In this document: piece after piece, positions 19,060 to 42,433 of the stretch
How the letters are laid out: each line of letters opens with the position of its first letter
How positions within the stretch are numbered: the stretch's first letter is position 1
From: Psammoneis japonica
Taxonomy: Eukaryota
Direction: 5' to 3'
NCBI GenBank assembly: GCA_008632985.1
Contig: QPGO01000126.1
Coordinates: forward strand, 186,001-239,979
Length of the DNA stretch: 53,979 bases
The notes under the pieces: model-generated
The model's database searches: none
What the model saw: the letters and a program-made list of their open reading frames with translations, nothing else
What the model was told of the DNA's origin: nothing
Program-made: the position numbers and the translations under genes

Positions 19060-21251
19060 GGTGGCGTTCGAGTTGCAATATGAACGACAGTAACAACAAC
19101 ACAGCAACAAGAAGAGCGAGAAGCAAAGAAGATGCGTCGATCATGTGCACGACAGATGCCGCAGAAATCCGTTGATTGGAGGATCGTTGTCTTCGGGGTT
19201 CGCAAGTGACGTCAACAATTCTGTGTGGAGTTCGCAAAGTAGGATTAAGACGACTAAAACATCCATTGCTTTCAGACTGTGTCGTGCCATTTTCTCTTCT
19301 CTCACACTTCATGTGCACATGCCTTCACTCATCTGCCCCATTCTCCAACTTTTGGCAAGACAAACTAAAAAATGCTCCAATTGGCCATGGGGCAGTGCAG
19401 CCACCTGCCATGATTTGACAAAAACAGAGCAGCATCCCCCCATCATTTCGTGGCGCACTCCTCAAAAGCACTTTTGCACAAAAATGCTTGTGCCAACACC
19501 CCCACGTCACCACGAAAAATTGTTTGACGACATGCAAGAGCATCTGCCACAGAGGAGAGTCTTGACAAAAATGGCAACAAAAGAGAGAGAGAGGGGTGCA
19601 TGTGCTTTTTTTTCTCTGAGAAAGCACCCTCGGGAACACTGGGCACACACAGAAATTGTGGGTTGCTGGCTCTTCGGTGAGAAATGCTGCGGCACACATC
19701 ATGAAAAAAGGAACTTTGCTGCCAGACAAGGAGTGTTTGGGGGACATCTCCAGCCAGCCACTGGCTAAAAAAATTCTGTCCGTCAGTGCATTGGGGGCAC
19801 AACATTTTTGACATTTTGGAATTTCATCTAATTTTGATCCTGGGCCAAGAGCAACGAGCGGCACATGTTTCACCATGATGGAAGCTCCAGCGCATTGCCA
19901 ACAATGTGCAGCAGATGTTGCTGGCATGCATGAGATGCTGAGAGTTGAGCTCAATCCTTGTGGCCATCTTTTGTGTCTTCGCTGTCTTTCAGAGCTGGAA
20001 GCGGCTCGAGGAAAGAACTCGCTTCAGTGCACGGTTTGCGACCATGCTGTCACCAGCCATCAAATTTAGAGAGCACCAACAACAAAAAGTTGAAAAAGGA
20101 CAGGATGGAAGAGAGCAAGGAATGTTGATGGAGATGAGCTTGAGGTGCAAGAGATTTCACGAAGCATCATTCATCATTGAGCCTCACGAGGTTGTCGATG
20201 CGCACTTTGTCCGTGGCTGGCAAATTTGAGAAAGATGGGTGAATCAGATCAAAGAGGCTGGGTGGGAAATGGATTGTTGGCAAATGTGATGCACAAGATG
20301 TCATTTTCTGAGAATCACCAGCTTGAGCTGCAGAAGCTCCAGCAAACTCTGTCTGCCAATGCCGAGTTCCTTCCCTCAGCGACTGATGAACAAAACTGTG
20401 TTGACACCAATGTTTGGCTCCACTCGGCTGTGGCACCATTGTTGTGCACTTTGTTAGAAGGCAACGAGGAAGAGGGGCATTCAGTCATGCAGACTCCTGA
20501 CAATTTGCTTTGGCATGTGGCAAATGTTGATTCACGGATGCTCGGGGAGGGTTTTTTTGCAATGAGCACTGGCCATGTGCCACATCAAAACATCAACCTG
20601 AAAGATGCCGGGCACCAGTCCCAGGTTTTTGCTGTGGCCATCTGCCAAGATCTGACAGTCTGTGCAGCAGATCCAAAGAAGGACATTGGTCATGCTGCAA
20701 ACACTCTGTCATTTCAAGTTCAAACAAGCCAACAAACACAGCTTTGTGAGCTCTTGGCGAGGATGAGACTTGTCAGCAAGTCTTGCAGTGCACTTTCACA
20801 TGATCTTTGTAGAAGGGCAGCAGAGGCAATGGCTCAGCGCACTGACCTTGGAACTCACAAGCCTCTTGTTTGTTCTGGGGACGATGTCAACATGAAGGAC
20901 GGTCAGGGCGGTGCTGCTGAACAGACAGCAATGCCTTTCAGGTGCCTCCGATTGGTGAACTGCCCTGCAATCAGGATCCTCCGCTTGATCGAAATTGCAC
21001 CGATTGGAGCAAATGGATGAAGGAAAGCACTGCTGACAAAGTCCTGGCAGTGTTCTTGCCAAGCAAAAAAGACACACATGAAATTGGGGAAGTGGCATTG
21101 TCTGACTTCACTGCCATTCTGCGTGACCTTAACGCGATGCCGTGGGGGGTCGAGGAGTGCAACAAATTGTGCTCTCCTCCACATTTGTTTGTCACCACCA
21201 AGAAGATCCCACATCTTTGGCATGTTGGCAACAAGCCAGATGTTCAACGAC

Positions 21252-22277
21252 TGTCATGTATCCTACCCAAAGTGCGAGCTCCACATATAGATGAGATGCC
21301 GTCATGCTGCCTGACGGTTACCGGTAAGCCTCTTTACCATCTCGCTCGCTCAGTGGGCACTTTAATGTCTTAACCATTGAATCAACTAGTACATCGCCTA
21401 CGTGGACATATCACCACACGCGACATCCTCCTTACTAGTGACTTCAATGTTCTTCGTTCACAACGATCCTCCTCGTTCCTATGTCAAGTCGGTTGCTCTG
21501 AGATTCCTGATTCCCAAGTCAGAGAACCGGTCTGTACACCGCTCCTTCTCATCCCTTCGAACAGAAAGTCTCTTTCGAGTTTCGAACCTTCGACCTCTTT
21601 TGACTTCACCGCCAATCAGAACTTTCAGCTGCTCAGACCTCGTCTTGCATCCGCTGTGCCAGGAAGCTATGTAGGNNNNNNNNNNNNNNNNNNNNNNNNN
21701 NNNNNNNNNNNNNNNNCCTACATAGCTTCCTGGCACAGCGGATGCAAGACGAGGTCTGAGCAGCTGAAAGTTCTGGTTGGCGGTGAAGTCAAAAGAGGTC
21801 GAAGGTTCGAAACTCGAAAGAGACTTTCTGTTCGAAGGGATGAGAAGGAGCGGTGTGCAGACCGGTTCTCTGACTCAGGAATCAGGAATCTCAGAGCAAC
21901 CGACTTGACACAGGAACGAGGAGGATCGTTGTGAACGAAGAACATTGAAGTCACCAGTGAGGAGGATGTCGCGTGTGGTGATGTGTCCACGTAGGCGATG
22001 CACTAGTTGATTCAATGGTTGAGACATTAAAGTGCCCACTGAGCGAGCGAGATGGCAAAGAGGCTTGCCGGCAACCGTCAGGCAGCATGACGGCATCTCA
22101 CCATGTCATGCATCCTGCCCAAAGTGCGAGCTCCATGTGTGGATGAGATGCCGTCACACTGCCTGACGGTTGCCGGCAAGCCTCTTCACCATCTCGCTCG
22201 CTCAGTGGGCACTTCAATGTCTTGACCATTGAATCAACTGGTGCATCGCCTGCGTGGACATGTCACCACACGCGACA
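21252..22277 (-). mobile_element. LTR retroelement with 174-bp LTRs (21252-21425, 22104-22277); interior collapsed or rearranged
   Basis: TG...CA direct repeats flanked by the duplicated target AACGAC (21246-21251, 22278-22283). On the minus strand, the purine tract AAGGAGGA abuts the left LTR and TGG follows the right LTR. Confidence 0.8.
21676..21716. other. Assembly gap (N run) at the centre of an inverted duplication
   Basis: 41 N. The segment at about 21290-21675 reappears reverse-complemented at 21717-22099. Confidence 0.95.
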
Positions 22278-23059
22278 AACGACTTTGTTCCAGTTGGCAG
22301 GATTGTGAGGAAAGGATTGTTGAGAAGATGGTCGAAATCAATGCCACATGGAACAAAAACCACATTCATCCTTGTCCAATTCAGAATGTGACATTTGGGT
22401 CACGGGGGACTGTGTGCGGCATCGTGGGTGCATTGAATTGTCAAGCTGATCATCAGATGGCAGCATGCAAGAGTGCACTCTCACAAGGCCTTGACATGCC
22501 TGCACTTGGGGTGCCAATGTCTGCCGATTCTGCACTCTTTTCAGCAGATGGCGCAATGGCAGAGATGATGGGCCGGATGTTGGACGAAGATGCGTCAAAT
22601 GCTGTCCAAAAGTGCAGCAAGTTAGTTGTCGTTCCCGGTCCTTTCCATTGGAAGAATGACACTTTTAAAAAAGCCAATCATTCAAGTGAAGATTGGGCCA
22701 CACATGTTGGAGACCAGTTTGCTGGAAAGGATGGGGAGAGTGCCTTGGACAAATTTTGTTGTTTCTCACTGACTTCTCTGACCCAACTGTCCCCAAAATG
22801 TGGATTGAAGCGGCAATGGCAGCAGTTCCAGCTGCAGTCTGTTGGAGCATGAAGGCATCAGGAAGGCAGCAAGCATCACCAGCTGATGCTTGTGACTGGA
22901 TGATCGAGCGAGCAATGGAAAGCCCTCAAACAATGAACCTCGTTCAAATGCATTTTGGTTGTCTTGTCATGAGGCACTTCAAATGTGCACTCAGAAACAA
23001 TCTGTGGGATCGACACTTGAGTGCAATTTGATTGAGCACGCCATTGCAGGCTGTGATGC

Positions 23060-23456
23060 GACGCGCTCCAGCTCTGGGTGGGACCTTGCACCACTGCACT
23101 GTGACATCAACAGTTTTTTGGATCGCGTCGCATGTCACACACGTGCATTTCTACGTGTTGTGTTCTACGAAATTGTTTCATGCTCCCTGTTTTGCAAAGC
23201 CAAAGGCTTTCTATTTTCAACATTCATGAGAATGAAAATGTGCTGGGCATGTTCTTTGATGTCTGAAGAACACACCCGGGCAAACTGTTGATGATGTGCT
23301 GCAAGCATGGAGGAGGAGATGCGTTCGTAAAATTGCCTCTTTTTCTGTTGGCGATCATGCATTTTTTCATTGCAGTGTGAATTTGCTGCAGAGCTTGCGC
23401 GCAGAATTCTACAGGCCCAATGTCACACGGAGTCCCACCTGGGACTGGAACCCGTC
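23060..23456. mobile_element. MITE copy 1 (GACGCG-TIR family, diverged interior)
   Basis: Ends gacgcgctccagctctgggtgggac and gtcccacctgggactggaacccgtc. Flanks are ATGC and GTGC (3 of 4 match). Confidence 0.75.
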
Positions 23457-25191
23457 GTGCATGGAACTCTGCACTCCAGGATGGCCGGAGATCTCTTTTG
23501 TGAGATGCTGCAGTGTGTTGGTCCCAGATGGAGAAGGCGGTTGTAAAGGATCTCTTGTTTGCATTGAAGAGCAAACAAGATGAGCACATTGAACGTGACA
23601 TCATGCAAGAGAAGCATGTCCGGGTCATTCATGAGAGAATCAGCAATGAATTGAAAAGGGGACATCAACCCAAAATCGAGGAAGCCACCCAAGCCGCGGT
23701 CTTGCAGGCAAACAAGAGGCATGCAAAGCATGTGATCAAGCACCTTGGTCTCGATGAAGAGGAACCATTGGAAACAAAAAAGGTGTTGTCGGGCTGGACG
23801 CAGAACAAACGGGCAACAAAGGCACATGCACAAACATTTCGATTGTTGACAAAGGGAAAGTTCTTCTTGCCAGGTCTGTCAGAGAATGAAGAAAATGACA
23901 AGTCTCTCATTTCGGTGAGAGACAGAGAGCCGTTGGAGATGCAAGGCAACTCGATGCATGAAAGATTGGAGCCACGCGGCGGACAAGGTGCATTGCTGAA
24001 TTCCTTGTCAAGAGTCAGCATGAGGTCCTCCGAAAAGAAAAGGACATTGGAGTGGAAAGGATTCCAGCTGCAAGCCAGAAAATTGCCAACAAAATTGAGC
24101 AACACCGGATCAGGCAAGTGTCAACTGACGTTGAAGAGTTGAAGAAGAGCGGAACCATCAAAGAAGAGATTCATGGAGCATTCTCCATTTTAGAGCCACA
24201 TCCAAGTCGCGGCTCAAGCAGTCGTGGACTTGACACCTGCAAAACTGAGCGGAACAACCAAGACGTTCTTGGTCAGTCATCTTGTTCAGTTGAGAAAGAC
24301 CCTTTTTCGTCATCGGCCAGAACTTGTTCCAACTTTGAGCAATGGCATCAGGGACAAAGCAGGAGATTCTACCACATCACAAGAGAGGAGAGAGGAAATG
24401 CCAGGTGACAAGTTTTGTGCTCAGAGGGAGTGCCCAGCGCACATGGATCAGCTCCATCTTGACAGAAAAGGTTTGTTTCAGTTGCAGCTGAGACAATCTG
24501 TGGCATTTGTTTGCATTGCACACATCAGGTGCAATCTGTTCTGCTTGTTTTGAAGCCTTGCTCAATCTCAACAGAGTTGCAGAGAGAGCAGAAGATGACA
24601 GCAGGCTCAAGTTGAAGTTCTTTGGCTGAATCTTGATGTGGTGTCAGCGGTGTCTGGTGTGCTCGCACGAGCTGAGCATTGGATCACTCAGAGTTCTGAA
24701 TCCAAGTCAATGATGCACAATGTGTGGCAAGTGTTTTGGCTTGTCTCTGCTGAGTTCTTGACAGTTTCACGCTTTTGATGCTTCACTTTCCTCTCTGAGT
24801 GAGTCTCACTCTCATTGTCATCAAGGAACCACAGACGCGTTCCAGCCCTAGGTGGGACTCCGTGTGACATTGGGCCCGTAGAATTCTACGTGCGAGCTCC
24901 GTAGTACGAGAATTTAATTAATGGATATATTTATCTTAAACATCAAATAAATGGCCAAGTTTGTGGTACAATTATGCGTGTCACCACTTGACGTTTTTGC
25001 AAATGCGCCTGCCCTACGCGATTCTTAAGACATTATAGAATCGCGCTGTAACAAAAAATGTCAAAAGTTGTTGGACGTATCGCTCAATAAGTGTACCGTA
25101 AAATGACACAAAACATCGAAAAAATCACGTAGAAATCTACGTGCGCGACATACGACGTGTTTCAAAAAACTATCGATGTCACAGTTCAGCA

Positions 25192-25353
25192 TGCAGTGTC
25201 TCGCACCTTATTTTTCTGATATATAGTATTAATGAATCTATTAGATATAACGGAAGCCGTTGTAACGGGCTTCGCTGAAAGCGACCCTCGTTACCTCGGT
25301 CTTTCGCTCACAATTTTGTTGTCACTGAAGTCTTTATCTCGTTAAACCTTGCA
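25192..25353 (+). repeat. Gypsy 5' LTR
   Basis: TG...CA direct repeat of 30416-30577; retains 14 TpA. Confidence 0.93.
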
Positions 25354-25587
25354 CTGTAATTACAGTCGATTTAAAGAACTGGATGGAGACTAGGAATAAT
25401 ACAAACAAATTGACTAAACGTGAGAAAAGAGAACTGCACGCAAGAGCAGCAGTTTGGGCTGTCGAGCACCAGAAACAAGTGCAACAACGTAAATGACACG
25501 AACAGAATTTGGCGAGCCGAGTGCATCATTTGGAGTCAAAGGTAGAGTCCCTGGAGAGGACCATTGAACAATTGCATTCCCTTTTTC

Positions 25588-26809
25588 ATGATGAGTGAAT
25601 CGTTGAAGGAGCCTTGCACTGGCTGTGAAGCTAAATTTGAGCATTCTGACTTGGAGGAAGTGAAATTGACCCAATCGCATGATGACGGCAGCACTCGTAC
25701 AAAAAAAGTGTCCGCGTTTTGATGGCACTCATGGCATTGAAGCATTGTCATTCGTTGAGGATCGTTTTCGTAAAATTGCTGTGAAATTGGAGCACACTGC
25801 TGGCGAGGAATTGTTCGAAAATTTCGAGGAAGTGCTTGCGGATGCTGCAGAGGACAAGTGGGCGAACTTGACCAATGCAATTGACGATGCCGATAAAACT
25901 GTCGAGCGTTTTGATCAGGAAATCAATTGTTTTTGCTTGTCTTATTGTGACAATGAAGCGCGTGATGCGATGATTGAACATTTGCCAACTTTGAAAAAAC
26001 CATTCAAATCTGAAGTGCAGGCGCATGCAGATCGCATGGAAACCTTGATTCGGTGCTCCAACAAACTTCCAGGAAATGCTCCTCAAGTCAACGAAGCTCA
26101 GAAGAAAAAGATGACATTCGACAGCTTTCCTCATCCGTGGCGTGAGATGTGCACTCGAGCAGGACGAGCGACAGCGAACGACACTCTCGCTGAGATCATC
26201 AGTTGTGTGAACAACGAGAAATCTTTTGCTGACAAGAGCAGCAACAAAAAGCAGGACAAGAAGAGGAAAAGCAATGGTGTTTTGTCTCAAGCTTCAAGAC
26301 GCTCTCGTGGCAACAGTGGCAGAACGGATCCAAAATCTAGATGCCCGGTGCATGCGAATCACGACCACAAGTGGAAGGGTTGCATTTTGAATCCAGAAAG
26401 CCAAAACTGTCGACCGAGGTCCGACCGTGGCGGTCACAGCGGAGGTCATGGTGGAGGCCGAGGAAACCACCAAGGCAGAGGACCCCAAGGTCGAGGCGGT
26501 CGTGGTGACTTCCAAGGTCGAGGACGTGGCAATTGTGGCAATCAAGGAGGACATGGAGGCCGAGGTTACGGCAATTGTGACAACTCCCAGAATTCTCAAG
26601 GGAATGGATCCCATTGCCAAAATCAAAACGGCACCCAAGCCAACGGTGACACCCAAGGCTGTGGAAATCCGGCTGGAGCAGCTCCTCCTGGTGGCTGGCA
26701 AATGGAGTCGCACCATTTTGATCAAGGAGGGCCTCGTGAGATGCGAGGTGGAAATGGATGCGATCAGAACGGTCGCACCCATCAAGGCCAACGAAGTTGG
26801 CGTAATTGA
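25588..26809 (+). pseudogene. gag: Gypsy gag (1-nt frameshift in the A7 run near 25701)
   Basis: Capsid-like helical region, CPVHANHDHKWKGC zinc-knuckle variant and a G/R/N-rich tail. Only 2 Tyr in the 376-aa ORF. Confidence 0.75.
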
Positions 26810-29800
26810 CAAGGGACGGAAGTGCCCGAGTCAGAGCGTGTCGCTCAATCTTTTTATGTTTCGTGTGATCGTGAAGAAAATGTGTGTTTTAATGTTGATG
26901 ACAATGTGGGAGACCTGATGGAATCTCACACTGTGAATGAAGAAAAATTGGGCAGCGTTTTGGAGCACGCCATGCCAACCCCTAAAACTGTGACTCCCAA
27001 ACCATTGAATGTGGTGCCAACGACGTTGATGGCGGCGCGTGCCATTCAAAATCAAGAGAGCAAGCGAGTGTTACGAGTGCCATTGGATTCAGGAGGTGCT
27101 GACACTCTTGTTCATTCTCGAGTTTTGCCGAAGGGAGCGAATCCAACCATGAATGATGAAGGACGGTTGAGCTTTCAGACGGCAGCCGGACGACATAAAT
27201 CCTCCCGATACGTTGTTATGAAGGACTTGATGTTGCCAGAATTTGACAAGTCAAAACAAGTCGATGGCATTGCGGCTCAAGTTTTTGATGCCCCATGCAA
27301 GTGTGATTTAATTTTGGGACAAGACTTTTTGTCGAAAGCCGGAATCGTACTTGATTTTCGATTTGGAACAACAAAGTGGTTGGAAACGTCGATCCCAATG
27401 AAGCAATCCAATCATTGGAACTCAGTTCAGAATTGGTTGGATACACTGGAAGACGACGGAGAGGACGAAGACGATGAGGGAGCCTTCGGACAATCTTTCA
27501 TGATGGACGCCAAATGCGAGAAAGCATCATCCGCAAAAGCAGCGCAAACTCAAACTCACTTAACTCAAGAGCAACGTGATGAGCTACAGGCAGTGCTTGA
27601 AAAGCATGAAACCCTCTTTGATGGAATGCTTGGCAAACATCCGCATGAGACTGTTCACTTGGAAGTTGATCCCAACGCTGCTCCCTTCCATTCTAAGGCT
27701 TGCGAAGCATCCAAGAGGGATGAAGCCGTTTTTAAGAAAGAACTACAACATCTATGTAACATTGGCACATTGGAACCGTGGGACCAACTGAATGGGCAGC
27801 CGGAACTTTTGCAACTCCCAAAAAGGATGGACGAGTTCGATGGGTGTCCGATTTTTGAGAGTTGAACAAGGTGCTCAAACGAAAGGTCTATCCTCTGCCG
27901 ATCATTCAAGACGTCATTCACCGACGCTCGGGATGCAAGCACTTGACCAAGTTGGACCTCACTGTGTTTTATTGTCACATCGAGCTTGACGAAGAATCCA
28001 AGGATTTATGTGCTGTTGTCACTCCGTTTGGAAAATTTCGATGTTGTCGATTGGCCATGGGTTTGAAAACCTCTCCTGACATTGCTCAAGCCATCATTGA
28101 AAAAGTGGTAAAAGGAATCGATGTTGAAACTTACATTGATGACATTGCTCAATTTGATGATTCGTTTGATGCTCACATGCGTCGACTCGATGAGCTGTCA
28201 TCCAGACTAGAAGAGAACAATCTAAAAATTAACCCACTCAAGTGCGAATGGTGTGTCCAAGAGACGGATTTTTTAGGCCATTGGCTCACGCCTGCAGGAG
28301 TCCGACCGTGGAAGAAGAAAGTGGAAGCAGTGCTACGAATGCAACCACCTAAAACTGTGACGCAACTACGATCGTTTGTCGGTGCGGTGACTCATTGTCG
28401 CAACATGTGGCCTCGTCGTTCACACGTGCTCGCTCCACTCACGAAGTTAACAGGCAAGAGCAAGTTGGAATGGACCCCTGAATGTCAACGAGCCTTTGAA
28501 GACATGAAAACCTTAATGCTGGACGACACCCTTTGGGTCCACCCGAATCATAACAAGCCATTCCATGTTTGTGCTGACTCTTCGGACTATCAGATGGGAG
28601 CCGCAATTATGCAAGACGGGAAACCAGTGGCTCACTGGTCCCGAAAACTCAGCGCAGCACAACAGAACTACTCTGCGATTGAAAAAGAATTGTTGGCGGT
28701 GGCAATGTGTTTCAAAGAATTTCGAAGCATGTCATTTGGAGCTGATTGTGCTGTTTTTACGGATCATAAAAATCTCACCTTTCGTACGCTCAATTCTCAA
28801 CGAGTTCTTAGGTGGCGACTCTTCTTGGAAGACTTTGCCCCAACTTTTGAATACGTTGATGGCAAAGATAATCTCTTGGCGGATTGTTTTTCAAGATTGC
28901 CACGTGTGGACCCTCCTGCGGAAGGGAAGTGTGCTCCTAACAAGGGCAAACTGATTGATTTTAAAACCATCGACCCTGCCATGCCACCGCATGAAGAAGA
29001 ACTGGACGACCAAAACAGTGTGTCTTATTTTTCCTGTCGTCGTGAAGAACCATCTCCATTTTACTCTTCCGTCGTGGACGACCCCGAATCATGTGAATCA
29101 TTTTTGAACTGTCCTTCTCTCGAGGAAATGCAAAACCCTGCAACTGTGCAACGAATTCAAGAGTGCCAATTCATCGACGTGGAGCTGAACAACATGCGAC
29201 AACAATGTCCAGAACGCTTCATGGTGGAACATGTGAATCAGCATCCTGTAATTTGTTGTCGTGCTCAACCGAATGATCCTCCGACTGCGTGGAAAATTTG
29301 TGTTCCAACGGCGTTGCTGCATGACATCATACGATGGTGTCACAGAATTTTGGGACATGCAGGAGTGCACCGAATGCATTCCACTGTTGGCGCACATTTC
29401 TGTCATCCTGCCCTTCGTCAATCCTGTGAAAGATTTCATTGCACCAATTGTCAACGTTTGAAAACTTTGGGCCCTGGACATGGGGACCTGCCTGAACGGG
29501 AAGCGCCTTCATCACCATGGACAGAAGTTACGGTTGACCTCATCGGTCCCTGGAAAATTGAAATTCAAAACCATGAAATCGAATTCAACGCTTTGACTTG
29601 CATTGACACCGTTTCGAATGTGACTGAACTTGTTCGTGTCGACAACAAAACCTCATCTCACATTGCTCAACAATTTGAAAATTGTTGGTTGTCTCGTTGC
29701 CCTCGTCCGAACCGGTGCATCCATGACAATGGTGGAGAATTCATTGGAGAGGACTTTCAATTGTTGTTGCAACGAGCAGGAGTGGAAGACGCTCCAACTA

Positions 29801-30303
29801 CGTCGCGAAACCCACAAGCCAATGCGGCATGCGAACGCATGCATCAAACTGTTGGAAATGTCTTGCGCACTTTGCTTCATGTTTGTCCTCCACAGAATGT
29901 TGAGCAGGCCAATCAACCAGTGGACAATGCATTGGCAACCGCCATGCATGCAATGCGATGTGCGGTTTCTCGTGCTCTCAAGATTTCACCCGGTGCCATG
30001 GTTTTTCAACGTGACATGATTCTTGACTTACCGGTCCTAGCCGATCTTGCTGCCATTCAAGAACACCGACAAGCGATTGTCAATGCGAATCTCCGTCGAG
30101 CCAACGCTGAACGCCGGTCCTGCGATTTTCAAGTTGGTGAACACGTTCTACTCAAGGCTGTCGACCCAACCAAGCTCGAGCCACGAGCTCACGGTCCATG
30201 TCCCATCGTTCAAGTCCACGCCAACGGTGCGATTTCGGTCCAACGTGCACCTCATGTGACGGAACGATTGAACATTCGTCGCGTCGTCCCGCATCGCACC
30301 TGA
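26810..30303 (+). pseudogene. pol: Gypsy pol (protease, RT, RNase H, integrase)
   Basis: Contains LDSG, YIDD, DSSDYQMGA, EKELLAV, TDHKNL, ADCFSRL, H..GH..C..C, VDLIGPW, HDNGGEF and NPQANAACER. There is a frameshift near 27779 and an in-frame TGA near 27857. Confidence 0.93.
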
Positions 30304-30415
30304 GGTCAAGGGTTTTCTCCCCAACATTTGGGTTTCCCTTCTATCCTCATCCATTGGAATTTAAATTTTTTGAGTCCCGCATGATTCTCGACACTCGAAT
30401 CATGGAAGGGAAGAG

Positions 30416-30577
30416 TGCAGTGTCTCGCACCTTATTTTTCTGACACATGGCATTGATGAATCTATTGGATGTGACGGAAGCCGTTGCAACGGGCTTCGCT
30501 GAAAGCGACCCTCGTTACCTCGGTCTTTCGCTCACAATTTTGTTGTCACTGAAGTCTTTGTCTCGTTAAACCTTGCA
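30416..30577 (+). repeat. Gypsy 3' LTR
   Basis: Follows the PPT and differs from the 5' LTR at 10 positions, all within TpA. Confidence 0.93.
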
Positions 30578-31505
30578 CAGCAGTGCGAGGTCCCACCTAG
30601 ACCTGGAACGCGTCCACAGAGCAGTGGGTGCTGTCATCCCCAGTCATGTGCTCGATGCACTCATCATCGAAAGGAAGGTTCTTGTGGTTGAGACCAATGA
30701 CAATTCTCTTTGGATGAGGCAGAATGGCTTTGTCCAGTGGAGCAACTCCATTTTTGAGTGGTGTGCCAACATTTCGCTCCAAAACAAGAGACAACTTGCA
30801 GTTGACAGGAACATCTCGCACCAGTTCCATGGCATCGGCCACAGATCTCTCAGCAGCCGCCAGTGCTCTGCGGACAGGTCATGACATTGCATGGTGTGGC
30901 TTCACCAGCGAGTCTTCACGAGTGCATTGGCGCTTTCCTGAAAGCTTTTTCCCACTTGCATTGTTCCCAGCACACTCGCCCAGCATTTCCTGAGTGTCGG
31001 AACAAAGCACGACCTTCTCGGGTTCCAGAGTGTGCTCATTGGAAATGGCAGGACATTGATGTGTGCACTTCAATCTGTCAAACTCCTTCCTTTTGTCATC
31101 TGGAGACAAGCTGCTCCACCAATTCATTGCAACAAGCTTCTCTTGAAGTGTCCTCACATCAAGGATGAGGGACATTGGCAAGCGACATCCATCGGCAGCA
31201 GTTTTCATTCCACGCGGGAGTGCTTCTCTGAGATTCTCTTGCAAAGCTCGGGTGGCGTGGAGCTTTGGATCCGTCCACACACCATTGTCATTGTCTTTCA
31301 TGTTGTTTGGCAGCATGGTGTCATCAATGAGAGCCTTGACTCCACGAATCTTCACCACTGGAATTGGAGCCATGGATCCAGCTGGTGACGATGGAAGCAT
31401 GAACCCCCGCCTTGCACACATCACTTGCATCAGGTGTGACAGTGTTCATGGAAGGCATTGGACACATTGCAGCACACAAAATGGAAGCCCCTGGGAGCCA
31501 TCTTT

Positions 31506-31895
31506 GATGCGTTCCAGGTCTGGGTGGGACCTGGCACTGCTGAACTTTGACATCAACAGTTTTTTGAATCGCGTCGCACGCAGCGCACGTAGATTTCTAC
31601 GTGATTTTTGCGACATTTTGTGTCATTTTATGGCACACTTGTTGAGCGATCCATCCAACAACTTTTGACATTTTTTGTTGTCGCGCGATTCTACAATGTC
31701 TTGAGAATCGCGCGGGGCAGGCGCTTTGGCAAAAACGTCAAGCAGCAAGAGGCACAATTGCACCACAAACTTGGCCGTTCATTTGATGTTGAAGACAAAC
31801 ACATCCATCAATTAAATTCTCGCACTGCAGAGCTTGCACACAGAATTCTGCGGGCCCAATGTCACACGGAGTCCCACCCAGGGCTGGAACATGTC
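31506..31895. mobile_element. MITE copy 3 (uninterrupted, inverted relative to copy 2)
   Basis: Ends gatgcgttccaggtctgggtgggac and gtcccacccagggctggaacatgtc, with 4-bp TSD CTTT. It carries the empty Gypsy target (a single CAGCA on the minus strand). Confidence 0.85.
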
Positions 31896-33483
31896 CTTTT
31901 GCCATCGTCATCAGCGTCAAATTGCGCCAACAGTGCGTGTGTTGGGTCGTGGAATTTGTGCCCCTGATGCACTGACAGACAGAATTTTTTCAGCCAGCAG
32001 CTGGCTGGAGACGTCCCCCATGTTGGAAATCCAAACCGAGGTGCACAAGTGGGCTTTTTGTGTGTTTGACAAAAAATGGGGTGTGAGACAAGCCCCAGCT
32101 GCCAAACAAACAAAAGCTCAGATTTTGCCAAATGACTTGTGTGTTCTTCATTGTTGCCTTTCTTGACAAGAAGCAGTTTTGCAACAAGCTGGGGCAAATG
32201 CAGGCCAAACATTTGCCTCCAGTGGTCTGGCTCAAGAGGAAAGTGACGCTGATGTCATGCCAACACTCTTTCTGGCTCCAGGTGATCCGCGCGGGTTCGA
32301 TTCCCAAAATTTGGCAATTTGTGCATTTGGCACATTGAACTTTTTCAAAATCTGTTTTTTGCCAAATCGAAGGGTGAGTGTGCACTTTTCATGTGTTTTT
32401 GGGTGTGCACTTGCCTTTCGATTTTCAAAACGATCAAAATTGAAGGAGTTTGATGCACCAAACTGTGCAGAAAATCGGCCTCTTGCGCGACGAAAAGCGG
32501 ATCACCTGGAGCTGGAACAGGCCTTCTGCCAGCCACCAGTGAGCTGCTCTTCTCCGAGAATGATGGCAGGCGGGGAAACTGCCTGGTTTCATCATGGCGC
32601 ACTGAGATGCTGAAAGAGCCACAAGAGCACAGCACACAATTTTTGGCTGGCTGCTGCGTGGGAGCTTGCATGTGCAGGTTGCCAGCGCAAGAGAAACGAG
32701 GCTTTGGCTCAGCAAAATGCTGAGGAGGTCTTCCCACACCCAAGCAGTGCCAAGCAGCTGCCAATGCTTGCTCCCTGTTTGGAGGAACTGGGCTCAGCAT
32801 GCCACAATTTGTGTCCCTGGTCCAACCCTGGCTGAAGCTTGCAGCGCCACTCGAGAAAGCAAAACGAAACCACACACTGCCGAGGTTTGTGATGACTGGT
32901 GAGCCAATGAAATGAATCACATGAGGGGAGAGAGAAGCTCTTTTTCACTTGTTTCATCTGACATTTGAATGGCAGTCATGGTGTCTTCCGGGCCAAGTTG
33001 CGGTGTTGGATCGTCGTGCAGCTCCGAAATTTTTGTCAACAAAACAAAATGCACCAGCTCTGTGTGTCGGGGCGCGGCTGCTGCAATGGCAGTGACCAAC
33101 AAAAATGTCGAGTGAGTCACGGATGAGACGTGCGCTGCATGCATCAGTCGCGCAATAGGGCCCGCTACTGCTGTTGACTGCACGCGCTCCAAAAAATAGA
33201 ATCGACTAATGTCATGAAGTTCAACAATCTCCGATGATTCACGGTTGAACTTTTTGATGCCTGTTTCTTCTTTTCCGCCGGTTGCTTTTGGTCGTGTTGG
33301 GGTTCCTCTGTTGACAATAGTGGCACTATACAACACCATGCCCTGTGAACTCTCGTGACGTTTGTTTCATTCACCGAAACACTCACGTCTCACAACAAAA
33401 AAGTGTGTCTAACACTGCAGCTCTCGGACTCATTATCCTTGATTTGCGGCTTTGATTTTATGCATCTACAATATCCCGGCAGC

Positions 33484-35774
33484 ATGAACTTGTCCGTCGC
33501 TGCTTCTTTTCTATTTGTTGTTGCTACCCTGCACGCTGCGAAAGGTGAGAAGAGTGGCATTGTACGACGAATGCACGTTTCTCAGCGGCATTCACGAGCT
33601 AACAAATGCGCGTTTTCCCAACCCATCAAGCGAACATTACCTGCGAGACTGCTCAAGTTATACAACCGAACTTGGATGGGACGCCCATCCTCACGGCCAG
33701 CACGCAGGGTGGATCAGACCCTGGCTTCCCCTGTAATGCGGGAAACGATAGCCCGGCTATCTATTACCAGTTTGTGGGGAATGGTGCGCGAGTCCGTATC
33801 TCTACATGCTCTGCTGCTACCAACTTCAATACGGAGCTAATTCTCGAAGACGACGACAGAACGTGTGGCGATGCTCTTCCATTCTGTAACCCCCCCTCGA
33901 GCACTCTGGATCTGGGTTGCGACCCCAGTGGGCAAGCCGTGTTTCTTGAGTTTTTCACTATCCCCAACCGTTTGTATCTCCTTGCGGTGCAAAGTCGAGA
34001 CAATGATGCAGTCGGTAACTTTGGTTTGTCTTTTCTGGAGTTTCTCCGTCCAGAAAACGACCAGTGTGAAGGTGCAATTCTCCTGCAGCCACGGGGTGAC
34101 TCGGAGCCGGTGGTCACTGGCGAAACTGTAAACGCCACCCGAGGATCCTTCCCGTGCAACGCAGGTAATGACAGCCCGGCCGTCTTCTACCAATTCCTCG
34201 GCACTGGGGGAGAAGTCCGTCTGTCGACGTGCTCCAACGTTACCAACTTCAATACAGAGCTTGTTGTTGAAGACAATGGCAGAACATGTGGCGCTGGTCT
34301 TACCTTTTGTAATCCGCCCACGAGAACTCTGGATATCGATTGCGATCCCACAGGGCAGGCTGTGGTTGTTGATGTTGCCACCGACGCAAACCGTTTCTAT
34401 CTTGTTGGTGTGCAGAGTCGAGATAGAGACGGGACTGGTACCTTTGGATTGAGTTTGCAAGCACCTGGATTTGGAGTGACGCCCCCACCTGTTACTCCGG
34501 CGCCATCAGCAAGCACGACTCTGACTTCTAGTAGTTCACCAACCACGACCGACGTTGCCGGCCCACCTTCATCAGCACCAACGGCAATGAGTCCTCCCTC
34601 ATCAGCACCAACGGCAATGAGTTCTCCCCTGTCTGGTCTGCCTTCTTCCGCAACCCCAACGATCGCTTCTACGACATCTCAAACTACGGCAGGTCCCGGA
34701 GGCGTTCCACCAAACAACGCATGCGAGACTGCACAAGTTATTCAACCGAACTTGGATGGGACCCCCATCCTCACGGCCAGCACGCAGGGTGGATCAGACC
34801 CTGGCTTCCCCTGTAATGCGGGAAACGATAGCCCGGCTCTCTATTACCAGTTTGTGGGGAATGGTGCGCGAGTTCGTATCTCTACATGCTCCGCTGCTAC
34901 CAACTTTAATACGGAGCTTATTCTTGAAGACGATGACAGAACTTGTGGCGCTACCCTTCCTTTCTGTAATCCCCCCTCGAGCACTCTGGATCTGGATTGC
35001 GACCCCAGTGGACAAGCCGTGTTTGTCGAGTTTTTCACTGTCCCCAACCGTTTGTATCTCCTTGCGGTGCAGAGTAGAGACGATGGTGCAGTCGGTAACT
35101 TTGGTTTGTCTTTTCAGGAGTTTCTCCGTCCAGAAAACGACAAGTGTGAAGGTGCAATTCTCCTTCAGCCGCGGAATGACATGGAGCCGGTAGTCACTGG
35201 TGAAACTGTAAACGCCACCCGAGGAAGTTTCCCTTGTAATGCAGGTAACGACAGCCCAGCTATCTTTTACCAATTCCTCGGCACTGGGGAAGAAGTCCGT
35301 CTATCGACGTGCTCCAACGTTACCAACTTCAACACCGAGCTTGTTGTTGAAGACGATGGCAGAACATGTGGCTCTGGTCTTACTTTTTGCAATCCACCCA
35401 CGCGAAATCTAGATATCGATTGCGACCCCACAGGCCAGGCTGTGTTTGTTGACGTTGCCACCGAGGCGAACCGTTTCTATCTAGTTGCTGTGCAGAGTCG
35501 AGACAGCGATGGGACTGGCACCTTTGGATTGAGTTTGCAAGCGGGAGTCACTACTTCGACATCTCCTCCAACGACCGACACGCCAACGACGACGCCACCT
35601 ACGCGACTCTCCACTCCCGTTCCGTCACTGTCTCCATCCGATGCACCATCCGCCATTCCTTCAGGATTCCCGTCCTTTTCCCCGAGCTCATCTTTGGCCG
35701 CTGAAACGAGAGTGGTTGGATTGTTTTGGACTGTGCTTTTGAGCAGTGTTGCTGCAGTCCTTGCCATCGGGTAA
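33484..35774 (+). CDS. Secreted, probably GPI- or TM-anchored surface protein with four Cys-containing domains of about 140 aa, join(33484..33544,33631..35774)
   Basis: Signal-peptide exon, then GT-AG intron 33545-33630 with a GCTAAC branch site. The architecture is A-B / Pro-Ser-Thr linker / A'-B', each domain carrying FPCNAGNDSPA..STCS..TNFNTEL..VQSRD..FGLS. The C-terminus is hydrophobic. Confidence 0.88.
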
Positions 35775-37363: not shown

Positions 37364-37559
37364 GGTTGTATTGTGCTTCGGATCGGCTCTTTTTTTGTTT
37401 CTTGTGTGTGAGAATGCGCGTGAGTGAATGGCTGCTACGTAACCTGCAGTACTGAATGTACGTAGAATGCTTTTTCGCGCGATTGAATGAGCGCATCTGT
37501 TTGCGATCGATCGAGAGCTGCTCTGCACCGCCCGGCACCGCATTAATGGGCCTTTGGCG

Positions 37560-38650
37560 TGTGGCTGTGAAATCTGTTGACAAAATCAGAAAAAGGGAGA
37601 AGACCAGGCAAGCGCCAGTTGCAGGTGCAGCATGCCTCCTTTCGGGGGTCTGGAACAGGTTTGTTGTGACACTTCTTGTCTCAACCTGAGTTGTGGCAGC
37701 TTGAAGCAAAAAGTGGGCAAGGGAGCAGGGTGAAAAGGTTCTGGGCAGCCATGCTTGATGGAAAAAGGTGATGGAAGAAACAGCACGGGAAGGTGACAGG
37801 GCATGTGGCTGTGATGCAGCAGATGTTGAGTGTTGGCACTCTTGTGGTTGACTGTGGAAATCTGTTGACAAAATCAGAAAGAAAAACAAAAGTCAAAAGG
37901 CACGTGCCAGCTGCAGCATGCCTCCTGGAAGTCTGGAACATTCTTTCAATTTGGCACAACCTTTGTTGCAAGATTTCGAGAAGGAAGTTTGAGTGCCACA
38001 CAAGTTGCGTCACATGAAAAGGTGAGGTCAAATCACAAAGACTCTTGCACTGAAAGCAATGAGAAATGAAGAGCAAAGAGAGGGGCCACACTGGGGCAGG
38101 AAAGAGAAGTCCTGCTCAGTCCGTGCAGGATCCCATGGCCACAGAAGAAGAAAAGGTGGTGGCAGGTGGCCATGATTGATGAAAAAAGGTGATGGAAGTG
38201 ACAGTGTGGGAAGGTGACAGGCATGTGGCTGTGATGCAGCAGATGTCGAGTGTTGGCGCTCTGGTTGACCATGGAAATCTGTTCAACAAAATCAGAAAGA
38301 AAGACAACAGGCAGACAAGAAGTGCCAGCTGCAGTGTGCCTCCTGGTGGAAGTCTGGAACATTCTTGCAATTTGGCTCAACCTCAATTGTGGCAGCTTGA
38401 AGTCAAAGGGGAGGGGGAACAAGGGATCAGAGGGGGACAAACAATGGCACGCTGCACAGAAGACACAAAGAGTTGCATTTTTCTTGCATCAATTGCAAGT
38501 TTTGTGAAAGAAAGTTTGAGTGACGCACAAGTTGTTGTGTCTCATGTCAAAAGGTGAAGTCAAGTCACAACAAAGATTTTTGCTGTGCTGAAAGCTGAAA
38601 GCAATGTGAAATGAAGAGGAAAGGGGGAGTTCACTGGGGCAGAAGAAAAA
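37560..38650. repeat. Diverged tandem repeat, unit about 420 bp (about 37755-38110 vs about 38175-38640, plus a partial copy near 37565)
   Basis: Recurrent aaaaaggtgatggaag..ggaaggtgacag..gcatgtggctgtgatgcagcagatgt..ggaaatctgtt..caaaatcagaaa. Confidence 0.75.
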
Positions 38651-39770
38651 TCCTGGCTTGGTTCCCTTGTTGCTGGGATTTTCCTGTGGGCTCAATTTTG
38701 ACACATGATCAAAGCAGTTGAGAAAAGCAAACTGCAGCTGGGCTGCAGTCCTTCACCCAATTTGTGCCACCCAGACACACCCGCTTGTGCTTTTAGAAGA
38801 ACTGTGCAGCCACAACCCAACAGAGCTGGACAGCAACTCACAGAGGCAGTTCTCTTGCTTGTCATGCAGCTGCTTCCGAGACTTTTTGCATGTGAAGAAA
38901 AACAAGAGCAGAGCTCATTTCCAGCCCCTGCTGGTGGGGCTGGGATTCAGAGTGAAGGAGTCATGCTGTGCAACAGCATGAGCAAAGTTGCTGGAAATGA
39001 TTGAGACTGGGGTTGTGTGCATGGTGTGAAAAAAGGGGAACAGGAGCATTGAATCAAAAGAAGACAAAAAAGGTGCTGCAAAAGCAAGGGCACCCTGCAC
39101 TGAAAGGTTGCAAAAAAAGCAGCAGGTCCACTTGCTTGCCAGGATGTGCCACCAGCTGCATCGCTGTGAATTTTTTTTGTCATTGCTGTTTTTCTGTCTT
39201 GCACTCATTGTCCAAGTTTCTGAAAATTTGAACAAGGTGCTGAAGCAATGATGCACACAAAAAAAGGCTTTCGAGGCATGCAAATTTTGTCCAAACCGCT
39301 TCAAACTTGACCAACCACATTGCACACACAGGACGACCTTCTTTAGACTGCCTCAAGTGTCTCTGACAAACACCAGCTTCAAAAATTTCCTGGGGGCTCC
39401 ATCACATTTTTTCACTCAGATGGCACACACTTTTTGGAAATCCTGGCAGCCAAAAAAGGACTTGCCATGAGTTTGAGCTGACCAACAAAACCATCACAAG
39501 TGAAAATGAACCACCAATGGCAATCCACCTGACAAGCCAGTGCTTCTGCCACCGGTTGTGTTGCCCCTGAAAAACACATTGGACAAACAAAGCACATCGT
39601 AAAGTTGCTCAATGTTGGAAGAACAGTGATGCATCACAAGTGAGCATCGCACGGCGTTCAAACCATGGTCATCAAGCAAGGTTTCTTGATTGAAGTTGGA
39701 ATTCTCAACAGCCTTGTGTGCTTCCTCTGCACTGTGGGAAACCCTCCCCTGATCATAAAGTGTGGGGTCA

Positions 39771-41276: not shown

Positions 41277-42433
41277 GGTTGCGCGGGAAAAAAATCAAAA
41301 TCCCACACAGAGCACTGGCATGTGGTCTGTGGTGGTTGTGATGATCACAAGTCGAGTGAGAAAAATGGCTGTGACAAAGATGACAATTTCAATGGAGAAA
41401 CGTCGCCAACTCACACAGTGAACGTTGCAACGCAGTTCTTGCATTGAGAAAGATGAGCAGCGCACTGCTGCTCACAACCTCACGGACTGTCGGTGTTGGG
41501 ACGATCTAGCTGACATCTAGGACAGATGAAAATTGTGCACTAAAAGAGAAAGAAAGTGAGCAAAGGAGAGATTGTCGGATCTCTCTGTGCTGTCCATGCC
41601 AGTCTGTCCGACACAAGGGAGTGCACTCCCCATCTCGGATGTCTTTTTGCACACATGTCACCAGTCTGACTCAATGTTTTCAATGGGCACACCAACGGAT
41701 GAAGAGTGGGGTGAAGGTTAAGGCCTCCACATGGGCATGCTTTGGCATTGCTTGTGACATGAAAAATGTCCCAACATCACACAAGAGAGAGTGGGCTGGG
41801 CGAGGCAAGAAGCGCAGCACACTTCAGAAGCTGTGACACAAAACACATTGAACATCTTCAGTGAGCAGGTGCATGGGTGGAAACAAGAAAATCCAGAAAG
41901 AACTCACCATGGCAACATTGTCAATGATTTGGATGTCACCCGGTGGGGCCCTGCTTTTGCAGCAATCGCATCACCAGTCAAGGCACGTGCAGCCGTTTGT
42001 GCGGTGCGCATGCTGGCAACCAAAGTCCCCCAGAAAACCAAACCAATGCATCAACATCTTCATGACAATAGTTGAAAAAAAACACCACATGAAAAATGCA
42101 TCGACTTCATGACATGTGCCATGGCATGACACATCATACTGTCACACAACATCCCGTTTTTAAAATGCCAGAGCGGGAATGTTTGTTGTCAGTCGAGTTA
42201 TTCGATTCCCGTACTTCAGTCACGGACATCGAAAGATTTCGCTCTCACAACTTCCCCCCGAACGACCGGAAGATCGCGCAGAATACCGTAGAAGGAGGCC
42301 GCTGATAGATACGGTATCCATCCAGGTAGCAACGCACGCAGGATATCTCGAAGTTCCCGATCTTTTTTTGTTCTGCGATCAACACCGTCACTCTTCGCAC
42401 AGTCAAAGAACATCAAAACAAGCACATCAGAGG

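Follow-up and report, generated by a model that had tools for sequence, protein, structure and literature searches.

The window, the whole stretch of 53,979 nucleotides analysed here, carries at 25192-30577 a genuine LTR retrotransposon, with paired LTRs bearing TG...CA ends, a target-site duplication and a polypurine tract all present. The SDH iron-sulfur subunit encoded in the region shares 90-92% identity with named proteins from diatoms, and the host is a diatom. The parts of the element, and the copies of the MITE-like host repeat in which it resides, are:

24834-25191, + strand: left arm of MITE-like host repeat copy A, the insertion target of the element; keeps 27 TpA and 26 CpG
25187-25191, no strand: left copy of the target-site duplication CAGCA, 5 bp
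25192-25353, + strand: 5' LTR with TG..CA ends, keeping all 14 TpA, an ancestral-like state (from the LTR alignment)
25670-26809, + strand: gag-like ORF, 379 aa, rhoTA 0.10, rhoCG 0.92
26810-27865, + strand: protease / N-terminal RT ORF, 351 aa, aligning to residues ~50-357 of its homologues
27859-30303, + strand: pol ORF (RT, RNase H, integrase), 814 aa, open but eroded, with 11 of 17 conserved Tyr now Cys or His
30404-30415, + strand: polypurine tract, directly 5' of the 3' LTR
30416-30577, + strand: 3' LTR, 10 of 14 TpA converted (6 TG, 4 CA), 10 CpG intact (from the LTR alignment)
30578-30582, no strand: right copy of the target-site duplication CAGCA, 5 bp
30578-30614, + strand: right arm of MITE copy A (terminal inverted repeat), its one TpA retained
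31506-31895, - strand: MITE copy B, 5 TpA left

The RVT_1, RT_RNaseH(_2) and Integrase_H2C2 domains of pol exceed their Pfam cut-offs, and rve scores 28.2 bits, under its cut-off of 32.6. The order of the pol domains is that of Ty3/gypsy elements, and homologues carry PF00077 and PF00665 in the same order. A Pfam search of the 379 aa gag-like ORF gave no hits and no protease domain was called by Pfam in the window's own ORF; compared with homologues, the frame of this ORF shifts once, at about 27770-27780. The family is multi-copy, with 4583 family contigs in sequencing run X1, and this run contains a fraction of 0.49 of the element's sampled words.

Alignment of the assembled 5' and 3' LTRs, 162 bp each, shows ten differing sites and no gaps. 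All ten are TA in the 5' LTR and either CA (25220, 25222, 25227 and 25263 in 5' LTR coordinates) or TG (25225, 25231, 25243, 25247, 25249 and 25336) in the 3' LTR, and no further substitutions are found across the full alignment; this realignment agrees with the sequence-only reading, in which the same ten TA versus TG/CA differences had been reported and nothing else in 162 bp. The TpA count thus falls from 14 to 4, and the CpG count is 10 in both copies, with all CpGs intact. Ten randomly placed differences would all lie inside the 28 TA-nucleotides of the 162 with a probability of 5e-9, and all ten hits lie in one LTR (0/14 versus 10/14; Fisher p = 1.5e-4). The observation is therefore confirmed as a property of the assembly sequence.

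Other repeats in the window differ in the same manner. Between the two MITE copies, 19 TpA are converted in copy B (14 TG, 5 CA) and none in the reverse direction; CpG losses number 3 in copy A and 8 in copy B, and TA~CG sites account for just 1 of 51 mismatches. A palindromic three-copy repeat, centred on an N gap at 21676-21716, is arranged as follows:

21230-21675, + strand: repeat copy X1, the TpA-retaining palindrome arm around the N gap
21717-22143, - strand: repeat copy X2, 10 TpA converted relative to repeat copy X1 (5 TG, 5 CA) over 385 nt, CpG 22/22
22104-22277, + strand: repeat copy X3, 13/13 TpA converted relative to repeat copy X1, CpG 10/10

Repeat copy X2 has lost 10 of 15 TpA, and 12 of the 14 mismatching positions are TpA-related; in the comparison of X1 with X3 all 17 mismatches are (13 TpA versus 0). 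Three sites in this repeat are three-state (TA/TG/CA), and no TA~CG sites occur in the LTR, X1/X3 or X1/X2 comparisons. In two kinds of control, a repeat pair lying inside a gene and pairs from DNA of normal TpA content, the spectra are rich in transversions. Among 73 related elements in environmental contigs rhoTA is 0.45-1.00 (median 0.71), and in their 13 non-identical LTR pairs 54 of 442 differences are TA-related and symmetric (28 versus 26); this LTR-pair control is drawn from other organisms, and from the genome studied here one LTR pair and other repeat types were compared.

In the young repeat pairs (LTR, X1/X2 and X1/X3) 33 of 42 TpA are converted, compared with 2 of the 631 other nucleotides, which gives a per-nucleotide rate ratio of about 243 with a conservative bound of 77. 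These comparisons indicate that TpA changes at roughly 100 times or more the background rate, in line with the earlier expectation of a rate far exceeding it. CpG is slower than TpA, with 10/10, 22/22 and 10/10 kept while 10/14, 10/15 and 13/13 TpA were lost in the three pairs respectively. The 52 events that can be polarised comprise 34 TG and 18 CA, interleaved, with an excess of TG (binomial p = 0.036) and no clustering of strand choice by runs tests (P 0.08-0.96). There is a modest lean towards a 3' pyrimidine (36/52 events versus 10/28 retained orientations, p = 0.005), and a 3' C alone gives p = 0.14. Raw LTR divergence is 6.2%, falling to 0/134 when TpA sites are masked, which bears out the prediction that LTR dating would be inflated; age estimates of such elements in this genome would be badly distorted by TpA changes.

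The direction of change was examined with pol homologues, using the 17 columns in which Tyr is present in at least 80% of 60 sequences. This copy has Tyr at five, Cys at six, His at five and Phe at one, whereas each homologue in the same test has between zero and two Tyr to His/Cys changes; other conserved pol residues are lost at only 28 of 324 columns (Fisher p = 5e-9 versus Tyr). Among all 40 changed conserved columns, 20 are explained by a single-step TA>TG (12) or TA>CA (8) change, and the remainder by one other transition, 14 transversions and five multi-step changes, with no CpG decay. Single transitions are thus TA>TG or TA>CA in 20 of 21 cases, and the transversions and multi-step changes show that ordinary divergence is also present. 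At 28633/4, where homologues have Tyr, the codon of this copy is CAC and TG is the majority reading among the family contigs of run X1, within a listing of 40 out of 1072 variant rows, none of which lies in the LTRs. Elsewhere in public records, four pol fragments (from Logan, ENA and NCBI sources) display the same erosion of Tyr to His/Cys. The direction from TA to TG/CA, previously assumed, is now polarised by the protein outgroups, the three-state repeat sites and kilobase-long TpA-free blocks.

These blocks form part of a broader regional footprint, listed here together with the one spared island:

3878-5586, no strand: TpA-poor block
7646-10028, no strand: TpA-poor block, ending at a peroxidase gene
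19366-21130, no strand: TpA-poor block
21723-24849, no strand: TpA-poor block, reaching the left edge of MITE copy A
24850-25415, no strand: spared island of ~570 bp (MITE arm, 5' LTR and ~60 bp of leader) with normal TpA and high CpG
30598-33156, no strand: old block free of TpA, with depleted CpG; its runs measure 992 and 1343 bp
37544-42069, no strand: old TpA-poor block, run of 1250 bp, non-coding, internally repetitive, rhoCG 0.14-0.58
43834-45354, no strand: TpA-poor block

About half of the region (48 of 106 windows of 500 bp) has rhoTA below 0.2, and 67 of 106 lie below 0.43, the value that bounds the lowest 5% of 1-kb windows in Bigelowiella natans according to a recent preprint (Mettrop et al., bioRxiv 10.64898/2026.01.13.699255). 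The longest TpA-free runs are 1343, 1250, 1032, 992 and 991 bp. rhoTA correlates with rho(CA,TG) at -0.83 and with rhoCG at 0.65, and the old blocks have rhoCG of 0.12-0.5, reflecting classical CpG decay. Host genes are spared, with rhoTA of 0.37-0.73 (silent codon-boundary positions included), as compared with 0.10-0.23 in the element ORFs and 0.00-0.1 in the blocks. The process is regional, with sharp sub-kilobase edges that are resolved to less than 100 bp; the island retains 21 TpA within 25192-25415. Under a simple model of transcription-coupled or RNA-guided action, R-U5 and the leader would be expected to be hit, and both are spared.

Among the alternative explanations the one that survives best, though improbable, is a sequencing or assembly artefact, such that TA is truly present and a modified TpA base in silent chromatin is miscalled as G or C by a long-read basecaller. 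The low representation of the element's sampled words in run X1 leans this way, with the LTR states known from the assembly alone, as does the N gap at the palindrome centre, which marks the assembly as imperfect. However, the outcomes are clean single transitions, and a symmetric modification should add CG and mixed errors, when TA~CG sites are rare; CpG in the blocks is depleted rather than enriched, and the classical CpG decay of the old blocks is an evolutionary signal. The TG states at a conserved Tyr codon in the listed family variants and the erosion in the four pol fragments also speak against it, and the B. natans lines are Illumina-based and show such mutations to be real (10.64898/2026.01.13.699255).

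Three further explanations are each very unlikely. Editing before integration would have changed the element RNA (by an ADAR-like activity with a 5'-U preference) or its cDNA. ADAR-type enzymes do favour a U 5' of the edited A, as noted in the preprint (10.64898/2026.01.13.699255), and cDNA editing could in principle leave heteroduplex LTRs; but both LTRs are reverse-transcribed off one template, such that RNA edits would be shared when the LTRs differ at all ten sites, and TG and CA sites are intermixed and form no strand runs. Because the MITE, the palindromic repeat and kilobases of intergenic DNA, none of it retroelement DNA, share the signature, both RNA and cDNA editing are excluded, and the sequence-only proposal of a DNA-level, post-integration process acting on both strands is upheld.

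It is similarly hard to credit recombination or gene conversion, by which the LTRs derive from different family members, one unmutated and one mutated. The family is certainly multi-copy, and the TpA-retaining state extends into the MITE arm like an exchanged tract, but both flanks still carry an intact 5-bp target-site duplication, which exchange between elements would normally break; conversion requires a donor with the same MITE/LTR junction, and the TpA process is still required to make the mutated partner. Very unlikely too is a non-mutational cause, in which selection or a structural constraint disfavours TpA in non-coding DNA. TpA is under-represented in many genomes and the blocks are intergenic, but losing most or all TpA in each young pair with only two other changes in 631 nt is far too fast and too specific for selection on individual sites, and the losses extend to conserved residues encoded by a dead transposon. 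The weakest alternative, that a RIP-like C->T process at CpA/TpG made the TAs of the 5' LTR and MITE arm and left the 3' LTR unmutated, can claim that two aligned sequences do not polarise a change and that fungal RIP is described as preferring CpA->TpA on repeats, but it is already refuted by the conversion of conserved Tyr codons to His/Cys and not the opposite and by the three-state sites; also against it are a TpA/ApT ratio opposite to that of RIP (0.36 window-wide and 0.0-0.1 in blocks), the greater CpG retention of the TA-rich copies (MITE copy A over copy B) and a host that is a diatom and not a fungus.

We therefore favour chromosomal, TpA-specific A:T->G:C hypermutation, which probably explains the LTR pair, the repeats and the TpA-free blocks together. 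The signature itself, the direction of TA loss and action on chromosomal DNA are shown by the sequence comparisons. In this scheme the Ty3/gypsy element would have integrated into a MITE in the diatom chromosome, after which a host process would convert A:T to G:C at 5'-TpA-3' steps, each becoming TG or CA depending on the strand hit. The element interior and 3' LTR would have been hit and the island spared, and in older repeat and intergenic DNA the same process would have run near to completion, leaving kilobases without TpA. Since loss of TpA never creates stop codons, dead copies retain open frames.

One chemistry, nearly as likely to be right as wrong, is enzymatic: a TadA/ADAT-type deaminase, preferring a 5' T and mildly a 3' pyrimidine, would turn adenine in DNA into hypoxanthine; because TpA is its own complement, a thymine modification mispairing with G is equally compatible. 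One copy of each pair is almost untouched, so the pattern looks position-dependent and not homology-dependent, and we infer that targeting is by silent chromatin rather than by sequence homology. The mobile or foreign targets here are the gypsy element, the MITE and the repeats, and the hypermutation may serve as a genome defence. A more encompassing reading, which we advance tentatively and rate a little below an even chance, is that diatoms have a TpA-directed DNA hypermutation that mirrors fungal RIP, converting A:T to G:C at every TpA of silent or foreign DNA, to completion and bounded by chromatin within 100 bp, and leaving deceptively open, tyrosine-free frames in dead transposons; as it is shared with Bigelowiella it would be an ancient SAR-wide defence, probably effected by a DNA-acting TadA/ADAT-type adenine deaminase.

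Several known systems resemble this pattern in part. Decay of 5-methylcytosine at CpG also yields TpG and CpA and co-occurs in the old blocks, but in silenced repeats it is much slower here and cannot remove TpA. ADAR hyper-editing of RNA and APOBEC3 editing of cDNA likewise give deaminase-type clustered transitions on mobile elements, and ADAR shares the 5'-U/T neighbour preference; both act on RNA or single-stranded cDNA, before integration and with strand polarity, whereas the process seen here affects resident chromosomal DNA on both strands, including DNA transposons and intergenic DNA. Fungal RIP is similar in being a dinucleotide-level DNA transition hypermutation of both strands of repeats and mobile DNA that ruins coding and confounds dating. 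Under RIP, the two members of a duplication are generally both mutated, in connection with the sexual cycle. RIP changes C to T at CpA and makes TpA and stop codons, whereas the process here changes A:T to G:C, removes TpA and never makes stops; the RIP indices are inverted, with (CpA+TpG)/(ApC+GpT) at 1.5-2.1 alongside the low TpA/ApT.

The signature matches the TpA-only hypermutation described in 2026 in B. natans. In mutation-accumulation lines of that species, A->G/T->C changes make up 230 of the 231 mutations found in two viral regions, all at TpA, the rate is about 6e-7 per site per generation, and an ADAT2-like deaminase is offered as a candidate, as a hypothesis only (10.64898/2026.01.13.699255). 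We found no literature reports of TpA hypermutation in diatoms, LTR elements or MITEs, and the preprint text makes no mention of diatoms, LTRs, retrotransposons or stramenopiles (10.64898/2026.01.13.699255). Both systems have almost only A:T->G:C changes, confined to TpA and giving TpG or CpA by strand, and both are regional, with host genes normal and change orders of magnitude over background (here a comparative estimate, not a measured rate). The long-term footprint is likewise similar: in B. natans it consists of TpA-depleted, CpA+TpG-enriched 1-kb windows, with RT and DDE domains enriched among TpA-poor coding sequences. B. natans is a chlorarachniophyte (Rhizaria) and its described targets are giant-virus and virophage insertions, whereas in this diatom (Stramenopiles) they are an LTR retrotransposon, a MITE, a palindromic repeat and intergenic DNA, and TpA depletion here is far more extensive and more complete, with edges resolved to less than 100 bp.

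The two LTRs of the element, a Ty3/gypsy copy with its 5' LTR at 25192-25353 and its 3' LTR at 30416-30577, are each 162 bp long with TG...CA ends, and a gapless realignment shows exactly 10 differences. The 5' LTR has TA at all ten of these positions, and the 3' LTR has either CA (opposite 25220, 25222, 25227 and 25263) or TG (opposite 25225, 25231, 25243, 25247, 25249 and 25336). There are 14 TpA dinucleotides in the 5' LTR and 4 in the 3' LTR, CpG numbers are 10 and 10, and the LTRs have no further differences, bearing out the sequence-only reading that the changes are all TA versus TG or CA with CpG intact. The probability that ten random differences would all lie on the 28 TA-nucleotides is P = 5e-9, and for confinement of all ten changes to one LTR Fisher p = 1.5e-4. 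The warning in that reading of inflated LTR-divergence dates also holds, as the raw divergence of 6.2% falls to 0/134 when TpA sites are masked; the element is thus too young for ordinary dating.

The element is a genuine LTR retrotransposon, as indicated by a flanking 5-bp target-site duplication (CAGCA), its pol domains, and the following feature:

30404-30415: polypurine tract of the element

Three ORFs are present, the last with reverse transcriptase (RT), RNase H and integrase zinc-binding domains above the Pfam cut-offs and an integrase core slightly below. Comparison with uninterrupted homologues shows that the protease/RT frame is offset from the RT-integrase frame by one frame shift at ~27770-27780, which in this copy is additional to the TpA erosion. 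No further copies of the LTR or element are present in the window, and no near-identical family members were found among shorter homologues, the best being 67% identical.

A comparison of two sequences alone does not distinguish TA to TG/CA changes from RIP-like changes of CA/TG to TA. Three independent and concordant polarisations indicate that the direction is TpA loss, as had been proposed: conserved tyrosines in pol, three-state sites in a local repeat, and a pair of MITE copies. For the first, we aligned the 814-aa pol with the best 60 of the 120 homologues listed (49-66% identity) and defined 341 conserved columns in which at least 80% of the 60 homologues share a residue. The element deviates at 40 of these, and has lost the conserved Tyr at 12 of 17 columns (to Cys at 6, His at 5 and Phe at 1) compared with 28 of 324 columns for all other residues (Fisher p = 5e-9); the same test applied to each homologue gives 0-2 changes of Tyr to His or Cys. 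At the codon level, single-step TA>TG (12) or TA>CA (8) changes account for 20 of the 40 columns, the remainder being 14 transversions, 5 multi-step changes and 1 other transition, with no CpG decay. At 28633/4, the homologues encode Tyr, the element has CAC, and most family contigs of sequencing run X1 have TG, pointing to one ancestral TA changed on different strands in different copies. By themselves, CA-versus-TG doubles among family copies do not reveal the ancestral state, which may have been TA or CG, and only 28633/4 is settled, by its Tyr outgroup.

The second polarisation uses a repeat with three copies, whose labels are separate from that of the sequencing run:

21230-21675: repeat copy X1, beside an N gap
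21717-22143, minus strand: repeat copy X2
from 22082: repeat copy X3

Ten sites over 385 nt are TA in copy X1 and either TG (5) or CA (5) in copy X2, with one CA/TG double and 2 other transitions as the further mismatches; TpA numbers are 15 versus 5 and CpG numbers 22 versus 22. Copies X1 and X3 (174 nt) have 13 versus 0 TpA and 10 versus 10 CpG, with all 17 of 17 mismatches TpA-related, such that the three copies form a graded erosion series. Three sites read TA/TG/CA or TA/CA/TG across X1, X2 and X3, and TA is the sole ancestral state from which a single step per copy accounts for them. A 404-nt palindrome (21292-22100, arms 97% complementary) has the 41-N gap at 21676-21716 at its exact centre and represents either a genuine foldback repeat or a join made during assembly; since its arms differ almost only by TpA conversions, they do not simply duplicate a single read.

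The third polarisation compares two copies of a MITE-like repeat:

24834-25191 and 30578-30614: MITE copy A, with the element inserted within it
31506-31895, inverted: MITE copy B

Nineteen sites are TA in copy A and TG (14) or CA (5) in copy B, with none in the reverse direction; 8 CpGs are lost in copy B and 3 in copy A. These belong to a MITE-like family of ~395 bp with ~25-nt terminal inverted repeats, of which 23060-23456 is also a member. In run X1 the depths of its contigs add up to about 140,000, compared with 66-79 for the contigs listed, and the family appears to be of very high copy number.

Control comparisons behave differently. An intragenic repeat pair (33626 versus 34706) has 24 mismatches including 12 transversions, with 14 versus 13 TpA, and two repeat pairs in TpA-normal DNA are transversion-rich too. 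Among 73 related elements from environmental contigs, rhoTA is 0.45-1.00 (median 0.71). These yielded 24 candidate LTR pairs, 11 of which are 100% identical and probably assembly overlaps, and thus uninformative; in the other 13, TA-related sites constitute 54 of 442 differences and are symmetric (28 versus 26). We conclude that the signature belongs to the host genome, and not to the element family or to LTR alignments generally.

The process acts on resident DNA, because it has affected a DNA transposon, the palindromic repeat and intergenic DNA alike. Across 52 polarised events there are 34 TG and 18 CA outcomes, which are interleaved (runs tests P 0.08-0.96), a pattern that would fit many independent hits and not one processive single-strand burst. 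Both features agree with the earlier proposals that change occurred after integration on both DNA strands and that editing of the element transcript is not responsible. A rate far above background had also been suggested, and as a comparative ratio this stands: together, the three young pairs show change at 33 of 42 TpA versus 2 of 631 nucleotides elsewhere, a per-nucleotide excess of about 243-fold (77-fold conservatively), and they keep every CpG, such that TpA loss is faster than CpG decay. A narrow sub-context is not needed given completion in old blocks, and there is a modest A-oriented lean toward a 3' pyrimidine (36/52 events versus 10/28 retained orientations, p = 0.005). Stop codons are never gained, as TA>TG yields TGA only from TAA, TA>CA yields none, and TAA and TAG are destroyed. 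Eroded copies of transposable elements therefore look intact, with long open frames in the element here and spurious ORFs in TpA-free DNA that gene finders would call.

The differences between the LTRs represent a small part of a far larger pattern. A dinucleotide scan shows two alternating block types, ordinary blocks with rhoTA of 0.4-0.8 and rhoCG of about 1, and TpA-erased blocks with rhoTA of 0.00-0.1, rhoCG of 0.12-0.6 and a nearly twofold excess of CA and TG. The longest TpA-free runs are 1343, 1250, 1032, 992 and 991 bp, rhoTA is below 0.2 in 48 and below 0.43 in 67 of 106 windows of 500 bp, and it correlates with rho(CA,TG) (-0.83) and rhoCG (+0.65). Ordinary blocks contain host genes for a peroxidase, an FAD monooxygenase, an SDH iron-sulfur subunit and CobW (all above Pfam cut-offs) and an MFS transporter (slightly below), which retain TpA, including at silent codon-boundary positions; the TpA-free blocks look non-coding and are internally repetitive. 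The host is a diatom, as named diatom proteins (e.g. Cylindrotheca, Asterionellopsis, Leptocylindrus) share 90-92% identity with the SDH subunit and named pol relatives are from diatoms too. A dinoflagellate host, with 5-hydroxymethyluracil at TpA, is rejected on these genes and on the zero matches to the spliced-leader motif. A 723-aa host ORF (33603-35774) of normal composition has no confident Pfam family and is composed of internal ~300-nt repeats, 62-92% identical. On the minus strand at 39771-41294, a 507-aa open frame with no Pfam match lies in TpA-free DNA, which lacks TAA and TAG stops on both strands, and it is probably spurious. A second TpA-poor, CpG-normal block at 50979-53214 has a young-erosion profile and may be another recently eroded mobile element; its direct repeats (51287-51586 and 52841-53140; 300 nt, 98%, 1554 bp apart) have 6 mismatches, 2 of them TA-versus-CA.

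To look beyond the window, we scored 120 short pol fragments from public records at the conserved Tyr columns. Tyr is kept at 1036 of 1284 covered positions overall, and four of the 120 (sources Logan, ENA and NCBI) show matching erosion, with Tyr changed to His or Cys at 6-10 of 9-11 columns; P0311 is weaker.

Pol fragments with Tyr erosion
P0297: Tyr kept at 1 of 11 columns; His 2, Cys 8
P0305: Tyr kept at 1 of 11 columns; His 5, Cys 3
P0358: Tyr kept at 0 of 9 columns; His 2, Cys 4
P0287: Tyr kept at 0 of 11 columns; His 3, Cys 4

These hint at wider occurrence of TpA erosion, perhaps in other diatom genomes, although they may include the window's own species.

The main rival explanation, which we regard as improbable, is an artefact in which the basecaller misreads modified TpA. 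One DNA run is listed as matching, run X1 (share 0.49), and no RNA runs are listed; the 40 of 1072 variant rows listed for this run include none in the LTRs. Against an artefact, the changes are clean transitions to TG or CA with CG outcomes almost absent, CpG decay is also present in old blocks, the independent public records show matching erosion, and Illumina-based Bigelowiella natans lines show that such mutations are real (10.64898/2026.01.13.699255). Thymine modification may be an alternative chemistry for the process. Four other rivals, namely a reversed direction of change, editing before integration, exchange between LTRs and selection against TpA, are each contradicted by particular tests.

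Erosion is confined to particular regions, whose edges are sharp. There is ~1 TpA per 11 bp at 25192-25415 and 1 per 46-146 bp across the rest of the element; the left MITE arm beside the 5' LTR keeps 27 TpA, the short right arm keeps its only TpA, and both flanks immediately outside the MITE are TpA-free. A young MITE thus lies in old erased DNA, the element inserted into the MITE, and erosion afterwards took the element interior and the 3' LTR, with ~570 bp (MITE arm, 5' LTR and leader) escaping. Transcript-coupled or transcript-boundary targeting does not account for this, as R-U5 and the leader would be transcribed yet retain TpA; nor does homology-triggered, RIP-style targeting, as each pair includes one copy with hardly any change and the MITE, at very high copy number, is spared here. 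Nothing accounting for the spared island emerged when the window was scanned for Rfam families and tRNAs. Our working interpretation is that local chromatin may direct targeting, with a promoter-proximal island kept open. One run-X1 contig (depth 77.4) joins 24835 to 30654 with 34 other letters at the junction, skipping 5818 bp (MITE and element), and may be an allele or paralogue without the insertion.

The erosion would extend a hypermutation known from one 2026 preprint on one chlorarachniophyte to diatoms, which are distantly related, dominate ecologically and have genetic tools, so that the enzyme and targeting rule become testable. About half of the 54 kb is TpA-depleted, making the process a major shaper of composition in this region, beyond two viral inserts. 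LTR-divergence dates would be wrong without TpA masking, and eroded elements are liable to be missed by homology searches. An untouched 5' LTR adjoining a heavily eroded interior is a natural experiment on the cell's choice of mutation targets, and the sharp TpA-poor edges offer others.

In B. natans mutation accumulation lines, as described in that preprint, 231 of 302 nuclear mutations lie in two integrated viral regions, 230 of these 231 are A to G or T to C, all at TpA, and the rate is about 6e-7 per site per generation, in some lines only; its authors hypothesise that an ADAT2-like DNA adenine deaminase is responsible (10.64898/2026.01.13.699255). Diatoms, LTRs, retrotransposons and stramenopiles are nowhere mentioned in its main text (10.64898/2026.01.13.699255), and a search of the literature outside subscription journals found no report of TpA-directed hypermutation in diatoms. 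The signature is the same as in B. natans, but diatoms such as the host here belong to the stramenopiles, not the Rhizaria, and the process here has acted on an LTR element, a MITE and intergenic repeats rather than the integrated viral regions described there. The reported rhoTA of 0.43, which delimits the bottom 5% of 1-kb windows in B. natans, is undercut by 67 of the 106 windows here (500 bp). Fungal RIP is the closest functional analogue, although its chemistry is the reverse, and ADAR/APOBEC editing acts before integration and on one strand, whereas the process here acts on resident DNA and both strands. The window thus provides a further case, far more extensive, of a process recently described in another lineage.
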